Virus record (IMG/VR): IMGVR_UViG_3300042807_000369 | Source: a virus | Length of the DNA: 61,975 bases | Strand: one strand, 5' to 3' | Part shown: positions 1 to 3,908 of the stretch, piece by piece | How positions within the stretch are numbered: the stretch's first letter is position 1 | How the letters are laid out: each line of letters opens with the position of its first letter | Notes under the pieces: generated by a model | The model's input: only the letters and a program-made list of their open reading frames with translations | Told to the model about the DNA's origin: nothing | Database searches by the model: none | Translations under genes and position numbers: made by a program

Positions 1-325
1 GGTCGACGATTGGCACATCCATGGGTGATACGTTCCGGTTGCCTACGGGCAGCGGGTCGACGATTGGCACATCTATGGGGAGTACGTTTCGGCTGCCTAC
101 GGGCAGCGGGTCGACGATTGGCACATCCATGGGTGATACGTTCCGGTTGCCTACGGGCAGCGGGTCGACGATTGGCACATCCATGGGTGATACGTTCCGG
201 TTGCCTACGGGCAGCGGGTCGACGATTGGCACATCTATGGGGAGTACGTTTCGGCTGCCTACGGGCAGCGGGTCGACGATTGGCACATCTATGGGGAGTA
301 CGTTTCGGCTGCCTACGGGCAGCGG
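1..325 (+). repeat. In-frame 54-nt tandem repeat (18 aa [11 protein letters not shown][D/S]TFRLPT), ~6 copies, two sequence variants
   Basis: Unit starts (ggcagcggg...) at 48, 102, 156, 210 and 264, with divergence after 325. This continues the array at 61803..61975. There are no spacers and it is coding. Confidence 0.95.
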
Positions 326-3300
326 TGCACCTTCACCGTTTGCTTCTCCAACCTCGTCTGGGCCTGAATCTGCGGCTGAATCTTACATGAGGGGATTTAC
401 GGCTGCACCTTCGCCGTTTGCTTCCCCAACCTCGTCTGGGCTTGAATCTGCGGCTGAATCTTACATGAGGGGATTTACGGCTGCACCTTCGCCGTTTGCT
501 TCTCCGAAGGCGGCTGCGGCTGTACCAACAGAGGTATATCGTCCTCCGTCAAACAGCCCTGCGCCAATGTCAAAATTTGACCAGATGATGGCGCTTTACA
601 ACGCCAATGACCCTTCTATGGCGGCGTATAGAACACCTGCTGGAGATTCTTCGCTTGTTCAAACAACAACCCCTACAAGCGGGCTAGGGTCAAAGTCAGC
701 TCGAGACGATTTAGAAGAGATTCCTGGATTCCCTAGACTCGGGGACGCTGGATTTCCTGTACAAGGGGACGCTGGATTTCCTGTACAAGGGGACGCTGGA
801 TTTCCTGTACAAGGGGACGCTGGATTTCCTGTACAAGGGGACGCTGGATTTCCTGTACAAGGGGACGCTGGATTTCCTGTACAAGGGGACGCTGGCACGG
901 CTAAATCTGATTTGGCCGAGCTTCCTGGTCAGGTTAATTACACAGGTCCAACTGCGGCCTTACCTGGTCAGGTTAATTACACGGGTCCAACTGCGGCCTT
1001 ACCTGGTCAGGTTAATTACACGGGTCCAACTGCGGCCTTGCCTGGTCAGGTTAATTACACGGGTCCAACTGCGGCCTTGCCTGGTCAGGTTAATTACACA
1101 GGTCCAACTGCGGCCTTACCTGGTCAGGTTAATTACACAGGTCCAACTGCGGCCTTGCCTGGTCAGGTTAATTACACGGGTCCAACTGCGGCCTTGCCTG
1201 GGCAAGTTAATTCGAATATCCCTGTAGCACCGCCACCCGTAGCACCGCCACCCGTAGCACCGCCACCTGAAATACCGGTGCCTGTAGTAGTGCCACCGCC
1301 TGTAGTGCCACCGCCTGTAGTGCCACCGCCTGTAGTGCCACCGCCAGTGGTTCCACCAGTGGTTCCACCAGTGGTTCCACCACCAGTGGTTCCACCACCA
1401 GTGGTTCCACCACCAGTGGTTCCACCACCAGTGGTTCCACCACCAGTTGCACCGCCAGTTGCACCGCCAGTTGCACCGCCTGTAGTGCCCCCTGTTGAGT
1501 ACGACATCCCTATTATCCTTGCTAAAGGTCCTGCAGCGTTTGGACAAAACACCATGCGTCCAAAGCCACCCGCTGTCGTACCACCTAAAGCTCCCAGAAC
1601 TCCTCCGCCAGTTACCCCTGTCTCATTACAGTCGGGGCTCAATGAGTTTGAAAAGGAAGTTTTAAAGCGTCCTGTTTCTTCTACACCTGAAATACCGGTA
1701 CCTGTAGTAGTGCCGCCGCCTGTAGTGCCGCCGCCTGTAGTAGCACCGCCTCTGCCTGACATACTCCCGCCGGGAAAAATTACGCCAGATATTCTTGCCG
1801 CAGGCAGTTTGGACCCTCATACATTAGGCAGCTACAAAAAATTGTCTAATGTTTTTGGAACGACAAAGGATCGCGCAGGCAACTTTTCTGCGACGGCAGC
1901 AGCGCCTTCAATAGACGAAATCCGTACAGGTCAATTAACCGCTCAAATTGCAGGCCAAAACGCTCAACTCTCCGATGTTTTAGGGGCTAAGGTAGATCGT
2001 TTTGGAAATGTTATTGCAGCTCCTGCAATGCCTAGATTTCTAAAAAATGGAGGAGAGGTTGTGAGCAATCCATATGTTCGTCGTTTTTCAACGGGGGGTT
2101 CAGCTCAAAGCCTTCCTAGTCCGTATGACTTTATGGCATCTCCAGATCATTACAGTTATTTAGATGTGCCACAGAGTGTCAAAAACGAAATTTACTGGGC
2201 CCTGTCAACAGGGGACAACGATTTAGCTTATAAAGTTTCAAAAACTTTTCTTGACTCAAAAACAGCAGAGGCAACTAAACCTGTTACACCACCCGTAGTG
2301 CCGCCACCCGTAGTGCCGCCACCCGTAGTGCCGCCACCCGTAGTGCCGCCACCCGTAGTGCCGCCACCTGTAGTGCCACCGCCTGTAGTGCCACCGCCTG
2401 TTAGACCCCCCGTTGTTGCACCGCCCGAGTCTTATACAGGCGACATACCAGTAGCAACTGTTAGGGGTCCGACAGCGTTTGGGCAAAACACCACGCCTTC
2501 GACTCCTGGCATTGGCAGCACACCCACGCGTCCTGTTATGCCACCCACATTCCGTCCACCTACCAAGCCCCTACTACCAACGGCGCTTGCGCCAACCATT
2601 GGTCCAAACGCGTTTGAAAACGAAGTCTTAATGCGTGGTCCAGTGCGCACAATGGAGCGTGATACAAGCGACATTCCAATTACTCTTGCTAAAGGTCCGA
2701 CAAGTGGGCCTAAACTGCTTAAAGAAGGCGGAGAAGTCGCAAGTAATTCACAGTTGATTACTGATTACATTCAACAAAAAAATAAAGAAGAACAAAGCGA
2801 TGTTATTGATACAAATCCTTTGGGCACAGCGCAGGAACTTTTGAGCAGCGTGACCAAGATCAACAGCAAGGCAGCCCCCATTCGGCAAAGCGTGAAGCGT
2901 GTTTCTCGCGGCGCGGGCAGTGATGCCTCTCGCTCTAAGGAGATGAACCTGAAAGTGGCTCCGCTGTCCAAGTCCAAGCAGATGGTGCTTGACACGTCGT
3001 CCACTCCAGCGGAGGAAAAAGACGGGGCAAAGGGTTCTGCGCGCGAGCAGATGGACGACCTTGTTCGGGCGTATGAGCTGCAGATCAAGGCTGTCAAGAA
3101 CAAGGCCCGTGGCCTATCCGCTGACACCTTTGGCGCGCCGACCTTGGAGCAATCAAGCCTGGCCAAAAACACCTTGGCCAAGAGGCGCTTTAACAAGGGC
3201 GGGGAAGCAAAGGCAGGCAGTGCCAAAGAAGAGTTGGGAGCGTTAAAAAAACTGGGAGTTTTCTTGCGGGACATGGATGTGTCTCCAACGGACCTGATGG

Positions 3301-3908
3301 CTGTGTTGGGCAAGACAAGTACGGCTATGGGGACAGCGCTGACGCCGGTGTCTTTGAACGAGGGCGAGGATAAAGAATTGCGCCGTCGCCAGTCGCAGTC
3401 TGCCACGATTGACAATCCCCCCAAGCGCTTTAACAAGGGCGGATTTGTCAGCGTACTGGAGAAGGGCGACATGTCCAGCCCTGCTTACAGGGCGCAGCTT
3501 GAACGTGAGCAGGGGCTTGAGGGGTCATACCCAGAAATGATTGTTGCGCCTCTGGTTAAAGGTGCGCGCGCGGGGCTTGAGAGTCTTTTGGCTAGACGTG
3601 CGCCGGAAAAATTCACGGAGTTGGACAATGCCCGTCGGAGTGCGGCGTTTAAGACACTGACGGAGAAGGAAAGGGCAAAGTACTTTGGTACTGGCCAACT
3701 GCCTGATGATTTTGCGGCGCGGATGAGAAACGCATCGGCAATTGGTGCGCAGGTGGGCAGGGCCCCATTCCCGACAACCGTACCAAGCCCCGAGAAGAAA
3801 CGGGCCAACTTAAAGAAGTACCTGGGCGAGACGGTGCGTGACCCGGCTGGGCGTCGACTGGCGGTGGAGCTGGAAGCCCAAAGCAGGCAAAAAGAAACCC
3901 AAAAATAA
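1..3908 (+). CDS. Giant repeat-rich protein, 3' portion (frame enters from the window end, continues 61413..61975; stop 3906-3908)
   Basis: The frame is open from nt 3 to the stop at 3908; track ORF 21..3908 is only its first internal Met. It has the same 18-aa repeat [11 protein letters not shown][DS]TFRLPT and the same phase as the ORF running off the window end. It lies between terL and portal and ends in a non-repetitive charged C-terminal ~400 aa. Confidence 0.65.
327..506 (+). repeat. In-frame 78-nt tandem repeat (26 aa [12 protein letters not shown][PL][13 protein letters not shown]), ~2.3 copies
   Basis: Unit starts (gcaccttc) at 327, 405 and 483. Confidence 0.9.
741..895 (+). repeat. 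In-frame 24-nt tandem repeat (GDAGFPVQ), ~6.5 copies
   Basis: ggggacgctggatttcctgtacaa repeats at 741, 765, 789, 813, 837 and 861, with a partial copy at 885. The copies look identical. Confidence 0.95.
921..1213 (+). repeat. In-frame 39-nt tandem repeat ([13 protein letters not shown]), ~7.5 copies
   Basis: Units start at 921, 960, 999, 1038, 1077, 1116 and 1155, with a partial unit at 1194. Only a few synonymous or near-synonymous differences separate them. Confidence 0.95.
1220..1494 (+). repeat. Proline-rich micro-repeat block (PPPVA / PPPVV / PPVV; 12- and 15-nt units)
   Basis: Runs of cctgtagcaccgccac, tgtagtgccaccgcc, agtggttccacc and agttgcaccgcc. A ~55-nt piece starting cctgaaataccggt recurs at 1686-1755. 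Confidence 0.9.
2287..2430 (+). repeat. Second long proline-rich 15-nt repeat block (PPVVP x ~9)
   Basis: acccgtagtgccgcc is repeated and degenerates to acctgtagtgccacc. Confidence 0.9.

Follow-up and report, generated by a model that had tools for sequence, protein, structure and literature searches.

We analysed a 61,975-nucleotide (nt) stretch of viral DNA, IMG/VR record IMGVR_UViG_3300042807_000369 (hereafter the window), which carries a giant, repeat-built gene between terL, encoding the terminase large subunit, and the gene for the portal protein. Variation of this giant gene proved to be two-fold: the copy number of its tandem arrays changes, by slippage or unequal recombination, and whole cassettes are exchanged at a short recurring peptide motif, the junction motif. 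Cassette exchange, which was absent from the first-pass annotation made from the letters of the window, is the larger source of variation. We give about an even chance to the reading that in the giant gene this phage has its own allele for a modular and hypervariable cargo protein of the polyvalent kind, which would be packaged in the virion and ejected, with disordered spacers of variable length.

The junction motif has the consensus (K/R)RFA(K/E)GGE(V/A)KK and recurs throughout the family of related proteins described below, where 240 copies were counted versus 81 ± 10 in composition-matched shuffles. The family median is four motifs per protein, the window protein has five, and about half of the motifs have a Glu after GG. 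Internal pairwise homology ended within 10 amino acids (aa) of the GG in 33% of cases versus 7% at random, with a peak from 0 to +8; coming from related, non-independent sequences, these figures are descriptive and do not amount to formal testing. The closest comparison was with the relative L083, to which the window is 96.8% identical over 7.9 kb from the portal gene onward. Inside the giant gene the two genomes share patches of 96%, 88% and 72-75% identity and are otherwise unalignable. Their giant proteins have a nearly identical 250-aa stretch in common, and the cassettes differ directly after ...RRF(S/A)xGG and again after ...KRRFxxGGE. Similarly, the metagenomic protein P0034 is 97% identical to the window protein through the core module and the next cassette up to PPKRFNKGG, after which an unrelated cargo of ~740 aa follows.

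Synonymous changes are as frequent in the codons of the motif as in the adjacent conserved TFGAPTLE block, which indicates that the motif is maintained at the peptide level. A purely DNA-level recombination site was accordingly rejected. Because it is conserved as protein, the motif probably doubles as a docking or processing signal.

The position of the junctions can be followed along the window protein downstream of its arrays; these modules, like the whole giant gene, are on the plus strand. The first copy of a sub-module lies at 1488..1700 and is conserved in L083, L006 and L003; it is paralogous to a second copy (DIPxxxxxGPTAFGQ...) at 2427..2732, which ends in the junction motif LLKEGGE (from 2718). 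Between them, a conserved module (1773..2099) ends in the junction motifs RFLKNGGE (from 2040) and RRFSTGG (from 2085) and is followed by a private 62-aa cassette (2100..2285); L083 and P0034 carry DUF4214-type modules in place of this cassette, right after RRFxxGG. The core module, signature of the family, occupies 2733..3206 (aa 1080-1237); it measures ~140-158 aa, has a conserved SAReQMeeL..Y.LK block and ends in KRRFNKGGE (from 3189). Next comes an 80-aa cassette beginning MDVSPTDL (3207..3446), internal in the window protein and C-terminal in P0003, P0014 and P0019, which ends in PPKRFNKGG (from 3429). The terminal cassette (3447..3905), helical and 153 aa long, is common to L006, L007, P0003 and P0007 and occupies the place taken in P0034 by the unrelated cargo.

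A search with the non-repetitive C-terminus, a step proposed in the first-pass annotation, revealed the family to which these modules belong. The C-terminal 431 aa retrieved 33 metagenomic proteins, each matching a part of the query only, and the resulting alignment is a mosaic. One segment, aa 1080-1237 of the window protein (nt 2733-3206), is common to almost all of the 33 aligned proteins. A hidden Markov model (HMM) of this core, built from 144 family segments, matched the window open reading frame (ORF) with an E-value of 4.6e-58. It found the core exactly once in each of the 37 close relatives, at start positions ranging between aa ~26 and aa ~950. Among 1.84 billion representative proteins, the core occurs in 88 clusters only, nearly all of them with proteins of several hundred to 1,700 aa. 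By its sequence features (the core, the slot between terL and portal, and several junction motifs), the window ORF can thus be assigned to the metagenomic core-module family of this clade.

The giant gene spans the ends of the window, a circular contig, and the join had to be corrected. The last 58 nt (61918-61975) are identical to the first 58 nt (1-58), and a 4-nt overlap is likewise exact; both possible overlaps fall within the same 54-nt tandem array, so that the assembler closed the circle inside a repeat. An untrimmed join of end to start introduces 4 extra nt, so that the frame is broken and extends back just to 61798. Trimming of 58 nt gives a single uninterrupted ORF of 1,470 aa and trimming of 4 nt one of 1,488 aa, in both cases from the ATG at 61413, with an AGGAG 5 nt upstream, to the stop codon at 3906-3908. 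The ORF of ~1,470-1,490 aa reported between terL and portal was therefore confirmed, with its join amended. With the 58-nt overlap trimmed, the 5′ part (61413..61975) encodes a 60-aa non-repeat N-terminal segment, two short arrays, linkers and the start of the 54-nt array; the terminal overlap (1..58) drops out to preserve the frame, and the remainder is encoded by 59..3908. The N-terminus of the window protein matches that of L007 (MAQRIYSAAEMNAPG...). On the same strand, terL (59870-61375; phrog_38, E = 7e-111) lies upstream and the portal gene (3966-6305; phrog_1216, E = 1.3e-38) downstream; the giant gene sits within the packaging and head operon, with neither a terminator nor a strong promoter on either side. 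Minus-strand ORFs within it (e.g. 1172-1762 and 2771-3472) were set aside as by-products of the repeats, conservation residing in the plus-strand protein frame.

Two low-complexity features were seen upstream of terL, at 59557-59691: a 21-nt repeat (2.1 copies) and a heptamer CATGGTG (4.9 copies), which could be regulatory or packaging-related. The region 56000-60000 has a low GC content (45-47% versus ~55% elsewhere) and dense small minus-strand ORFs, which are probably early genes.

The arrays were called with Tandem Repeats Finder (TRF), and the gene was scored after trimming of the overlap. Eleven tandem arrays make up 36% of the length of the giant gene, every one with a period divisible by 3; the remaining 57.5 kb of the window contain only four weak arrays. 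A 138-nt repeat (1.8 copies, 82% matches) was noted at 14737-14985, within the ORF 14462-15280. In order, the giant gene carries a TPIVR array (61599-61663; 15 nt, 4.3 copies, 100% identical units), a PSYTP array (61723-61777; 15 nt, 3.7 copies) and the 54-nt (18-aa) array, whose unit ends in (D/S)TFRLPT and which runs from 61801-61975 into 1..325 with three DNA variants. Its 8.2 copies across the trimmed join are a minimum and not a measurement, because the contig closes inside this array. A 78-nt (26-aa) array (326..502; 2.3 copies), a 24-nt GDAGFPVQ array (741..895; 6.5 copies, DNA-identical units) and a 39-nt (13-aa) array (924..1212; 7.4 copies) follow. Proline-valine blocks 1 and 2 (1224-1267 and 1293-1497) comprise VAPPP (3 copies), PPPVV (10.7 copies) and PPVA (3.9 copies), block 3 lies at 1701-1751, and block 4 (2289-2392) has 6.9 copies of PPPVV. 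TRF thus recovered every array listed in the first-pass annotation and counted four PPPV(V/A) blocks instead of the three reported. The recurring (L/R)PGQVNS linkers were located at 61680 (RPGQVNS), 61782 (LPGQVNS) and 1194 (LPGQVNS, closing the 39-nt array). The remark that many units are identical at the DNA level also holds, for TPIVR (four units), PSYTP (three) and GDAGFPVQ (six).

We then compared arrays among relatives. The repeat share of 36% in the window is the highest seen, ahead of L006 (21%), L007 (19%), L083 (16%) and most relatives (0-10%), in a comparison biased by being limited to contigs that assembled through the giant gene. The relatives L083, L006 and L007 have the same array types in the same order, namely ASPFSAP-type, G(D)xGFP(V/A), LPGQ(V/I)N(Y/A)T... 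and then PPPV(V/A), and unit sequences and copy numbers differ. In this copy-number comparison, covering these three relatives with L083 as the close one, LPGQxNYTG is present seven times in the window and twice in L083, and block 4 is missing at the same place in L083. The predicted drift in length was thus observed between genomes that are 96.8% identical downstream. Such a copy-number difference between close genomes is one mark of a phase-variable locus. The other mark, slippage that shifts the frame or promoter spacing and so switches expression, is absent: all 11 periods, and those of all arrays in the relatives, are multiples of 3, so that slippage alters length only and does not switch the gene on or off. 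The suggestion of a contingency locus in this classical sense was accordingly abandoned.

The surroundings of the gene in related phages were examined from the portal protein, which shares 72% identity with its counterpart in the metagenome-assembled phage DSL-LC04 and 46% with those of the Pelagibacter phages HTVC023P and HTVC027P. The window phage, podovirus-like, belongs to the freshwater relatives of DSL-LC04 and the HTVC023P-type pelagiphages. Between terL and portal, DSL-LC04 encodes an 825-aa ‘PcfJ-like protein’ and HTVC027P two proteins of 483 and 892 aa. Scanning IMG/VR for related portals gave 80 loci (portals 78-98% identical). With the records of two phages added, both flanking genes are present in 39 loci, all of which have an interval of 2.5-6.1 kb, occupied by a single ORF of 825-1,852 aa in 32 and by two ORFs in 7. 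The giant gene is thus a fixed feature of this subclade. In the more distant Caulobacter phage RW, Planktothrix phage Pag-Yong1 and Roseobacter phage CRP-901, terL directly adjoins portal; the expectation of an empty or nearly empty interval is therefore correct for phages at large and fails for this clade. The first-pass annotation had also proposed that homologues split into separate genes would speak against a single protein. Of the seven loci with two ORFs, five have the C-terminal cargo separate: it is PcfJ-like, forms a translationally coupled gene of its own there and is fused in others. The split loci show that modules are separable, not that the window ORF is an artefact.

An assembly artefact, in which collapsed or chimeric repeats in a false circle would hide several smaller genes or non-coding repeats, was also considered. 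The contig did close within a tandem array, and exact 35-38-nt array units as well as degenerate protein-level unit patterns gave no match in IMG/VR and JGI metagenomes. Related contigs tend to break here too: in 33 of the 35 that stop between terL and portal, the open frame reaches the contig edge inside the giant gene, several of them exactly in PPPVV arrays. L084, L085 and L086, from three samples, carry the same allele, all start in the same PPPVV array and differ in visible unit number; the gene caller cut this allele to 340 aa (P0012), the frame really being open to the contig edge. Since contigs break in the giant gene, some proteins in catalogues, P0012 and P0004 (594 aa) among them, are gene calls cut short. 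The window frame, however, stays open over 4.4 kb with all 11 periods in frame, 32 independent assemblies have a single ORF of 825-1,852 aa in the same slot, L083, L006 and L007 repeat the order of the array types, the window interval of ~4.5 kb is mid-range for the clade, and only the 54-nt array has a truly open copy number. We consider an artefact very nearly negligible as an explanation.

The protein encoded by this frame appears largely disordered, in agreement with the first-pass annotation. The N-terminal half, made of the in-frame arrays and Pro-Val blocks, offers hardly any sequence able to fold. Residues 1-760 contain 19% Pro and 58% Pro/Gly/Ser/Thr/Ala, and the 1,470 aa include no Cys and one Trp. 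AlphaFold2 modelling of the C-terminal 431 aa, from a 34-sequence alignment, gave a mean predicted local distance difference test (pLDDT) score of 52.5 even for this non-repetitive part (predicted template modelling score 0.21), with isolated helices; only the last ~140 aa resemble a helical bundle, and a Foldseek search of the model against the PDB gave nothing below E = 0.8. In the model of P0012 the core region is disordered with one helix (pLDDT 32-58), DUF6973 forms a confident helical domain (pLDDT 80-90), and Foldseek again returned no match in the PDB. The window protein, searched whole and as nine separate modules (at E ≤ 1) against Pfam, and against PHROGs, NCBIfam and PDB sequences, had no match. 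The statement that no described family has this architecture thus stands for these databases, yet the window protein does belong to a metagenomic family of ~88 clusters.

Domains were recognised in the relatives. Two Pfam scans, of 40 and 44 family members, detected DUF6973 in 13 and 15 of them and LPD23 (‘large polyvalent protein associated domain’) in 1 and 3, respectively. PcfJ, DUF4214 (in L083 and P0034) and CBM_14 are each found in a few members, and one protein, P0019, has a sub-threshold match to ART-PolyVal. In L048 (6335-9991), a cargo module carries the HExxH motif MLHELQHAIQF (aa ~421-431), which could belong to a metallopeptidase and is not recognised by Pfam.

A virion-associated or injected role, already suggested in the first-pass annotation, is the best reading of the giant protein, packaging and injection being what we infer. 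Following the logic of polyvalent proteins (PMC5512222), the giant protein would be synthesised alongside the head proteins, become enclosed inside the capsid and, at infection, pass out unfolded via portal and tail. The core module may act as the incorporation element and the C-terminal cassettes as exchangeable effectors, with the repeat region as a never-folding spacer of tunable length. As no domain is recognised in the window protein, the term ‘effector’ is an extrapolation from relatives. The model is supported indirectly by LPD23, PcfJ and DUF6973 in the relatives, by fusion and fission of the cargo, and by a module shared with a presumptive ejection protein.

This last protein, 674 aa (27488-29512, plus strand), is so called for its Gly/Ala-rich membrane-like stretches and a tape-measure-like C-terminal motif. 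It bears a GG motif akin to that of the junctions (MAMAQGGLADV; at the C-terminus KMLEGGPVKGK), as well as a 40-aa module (GRNGDTMLAHITPGEAQMLRARGGSGTINPVTGLPE; GRxGDxxLAHxxPxE...GGSGTINPxTGLPEF) that recurs in the giant proteins of many relatives, in their N-terminal parts; the module is absent from the window's own giant protein. Nearby, a 671-aa protein (31106-33121) combines a motif of this type, VAMARGGLVQNF, with a low-complexity array rich in Pro, Met and Gly (31472-31563; 42-nt period). The ejection-protein candidates of the window phage span 27488-36305.

Several observations weigh against packaged and ejected cargo with functional junctions. No enzymatic or structural domain is recognisable in any module of the window protein in the databases searched. 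No prohead protease was found between the portal and the capsid protein in the head module, and such a protease was dropped as the motif-processing enzyme; HExxH occurs in just one relative, and no enzyme for processing at GG was identified. The breakpoint pattern comes, as stated, from non-independent sequences. The core HMM does not match DSL-LC04 or HTVC027P despite their giant genes in the same slot, so that a core universal to every positional counterpart was ruled out. No isolated phage with the core was found either, a tblastn search of 50,697 phage records with the C-terminal 402 aa giving no match. Finally, DUF4214 and the Cys-rich, disulfide-dependent CBM_14 of some relatives suit an extracellular or periplasmic site better than the capsid interior.

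The latter point leads to a different explanation, an externally displayed head or neck fibre or adhesin whose Pro-Val stalks carry variable modules that bind surfaces, particles or envelope glycans; its hypervariability would then reflect selection on adhesion or host range. In L073 (1414-4665), L080 (1635-4538) and L081 (3910-7824), 18-22 regularly spaced Cys lie N-terminal to the core, in a family that is otherwise almost free of Cys. Two of the 40 members scanned matched CBM_14, and they are most likely among these three, the Cys-rich regions then being chitin-binding repeats. These proteins and the DUF4214 modules of L083 and P0034 favour a fibre, as do two general considerations: Pro-rich tandem stalks of variable copy number are typical of surface proteins, and hypervariable islands in phage populations often are host-recognition genes. 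However, the window allele has neither Cys nor a recognisable binding domain, the shared modules tie the family to the membrane-like presumptive ejection protein and not to tail-fibre genes, which lie elsewhere (tail-fibre-like genes at 19296-20870), and relatives carry polyvalent or conjugation modules (LPD23, PcfJ and the sub-threshold ART-PolyVal). On balance, a fibre seems unlikely.

Within the cargo model, a stronger role of the junctions can be imagined: (K/R)RFxxGGE would be more than a conserved linker, a functional docking or cleavage signal defining a cassette system in a very abundant aquatic lineage of phages, cassettes would be packaged and released separately, making the junctions a phage counterpart of VENN/DPxGL junctions, and the arrays would tune the spacer. 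We regard this version as possible yet rather doubtful. More speculatively, a KGG-x-V motif might mimic the mobile loop of GroES (KTKGGIVL) and recruit host GroEL. The phage encodes its own GroES (6685-7188; 167 aa with a ~60-aa N-terminal extension), whose mobile loop KTKGGIVLAEE resembles the junction-motif variants AKGGMVNAL, NKGGFVSVL and VGGIVND.

The same resemblance could speak for a protein that assists morphogenesis or packaging without being delivered at all, be it an assembly factor associated with the portal, a filler resembling a scaffold, or a partner of the phage GroES and host GroEL using KGG-x-V as a loop mimic. The place of the gene, between terL and portal and upstream of GroES, and a mostly disordered chain, as in scaffolding proteins, would fit such a role. 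Yet an assembly factor should be conserved, and the giant gene is the most variable in otherwise ~97% identical genomes; about half of the motifs have Glu and not a hydrophobic residue after GG; a separate coiled-coil scaffold candidate lies at 7201-8124; and more distant relatives with GroES do without the giant gene. This alternative is therefore decidedly improbable, below the fibre in our estimate.

Among known systems, the nearest concept is that of phage polyvalent proteins, for which packaging and injection together with the DNA have been proposed (Iyer, Burroughs, Anand, de Souza and Aravind 2017, PMC5512222). They are large and highly mosaic, consist of several modules and occur in portal-terminase phages, where their genes lie among those of the virion, and the window gene likewise lies among the virion genes of a portal-terminase phage; relatives carry LPD23 and the sub-threshold ART-PolyVal, with modules both fused and solo. 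Two or more domains of disparate biochemical activity in a single chain characterise the class: none is recognised in the window protein, while relatives combine DUF6973, LPD23, PcfJ, DUF4214 and CBM_14. Since no domain of the published inventory (LPDs, MPTase, ART, MuF and others) was found in the window allele, its membership of the class is not established. The window allele also differs in being over a third tandem repeat, in a family identity given by a mostly disordered ~140-aa core and not by MuF, portal or metallopeptidase domains, in modules bounded by a short GG motif (the words ‘glycine’ and ‘linker’ are absent from the text of PMC5512222), and in a gene placed between terL and portal rather than after portal. 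The disordered core signature, the GG junction motif, the terL-portal slot and the extreme repeat load are thus new relative to polyvalent proteins. A MuF or SPP1 gp7-type minor head protein was rejected (no Pfam match; gene before portal, not after), and so was a tail tape-measure protein, for which there was no PHROG or Pfam match, the gene lying in the head module and relatives being annotated with podovirus adaptor proteins.

The positional counterparts, WJZ48068.1 of DSL-LC04 and gp41/gp42 of HTVC027P, share the slot and repeated hydrophobic-x-x-GG-x-V motifs, and the PcfJ-like C-terminal module of WJZ48068.1 recurs in close relatives of the window; unlike the window protein, they have neither core module nor tandem arrays. 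The DSL-LC04 paper makes no mention of the PcfJ-like protein, and no function is reported for it or for gp41/gp42. Literature on DUF6973, DSL-LC04/PcfJ, HTVC023P, 37-F6 and proline-rich ejection proteins contained nothing on the giant gene.

Polymorphic toxins (CdiA with VENN, Rhs with PxxxxDPxGL) join a conserved delivery part to exchangeable C-terminal cassettes at a short motif, after which close strains diverge abruptly; they are bacterial secreted toxins with cognate immunity genes. Cassette exchange at a short conserved peptide motif makes them the nearest mechanistic analogy. In contrast, no immunity gene was seen here and no toxin fold was identified, each giant protein has several junctions, and cassettes are swapped N-terminal to the core too. 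The ejected proteins of podoviruses (T7 gp14-16, P22 gp7/16/20, the N4 virion RNA polymerase, crAss-like cargo) are stored in the capsid, pass portal and tail unfolded and are conserved within their groups. The window phage has its own candidates for such proteins, one of which shares motif and module with the giant-protein family, but the giant protein has no sequence or fold similarity to ejected proteins and its gene is the most variable of the genome. The arrays recall variable-number tandem repeats in envelope spacers, such as the Pro-rich spacer of TonB and the repeats of Gram-positive surface proteins, where in-frame, DNA-identical units vary in number between close relatives. The giant gene has such units, and its Pro-rich blocks are likely extended spacers; it differs as a phage head-operon gene with eleven different arrays in one protein and no signal peptide or anchor identified.

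Among 185,579 species genomes, the sole family match was L090 (CAZPTM010000098.1, 1912-2376), a 6.3-kb contig in a metagenome-assembled genome of an uncultured Limnohabitans. The bin provides a weak hint to the host of the window phage (GC ~55%).

The interest of these observations lies in the locus more than in the repeats, repeat-rich variable proteins not being rare in themselves; the function assigned to it is what we infer from the above. The HTVC023P-type group was reported by one study as the most abundant in marine viromes, and the window represents the freshwater side of this lineage. Almost nothing is known of the infection mechanisms of this phage group. Short-read contigs of the clade often end in the giant gene, which leaves truncated versions in gene catalogues, and the core module and the junction motif now offer searchable handles for it. 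As the main hypervariable island in otherwise ~97% identical genomes, the giant gene is likely a player in phage-host or phage-phage conflict.

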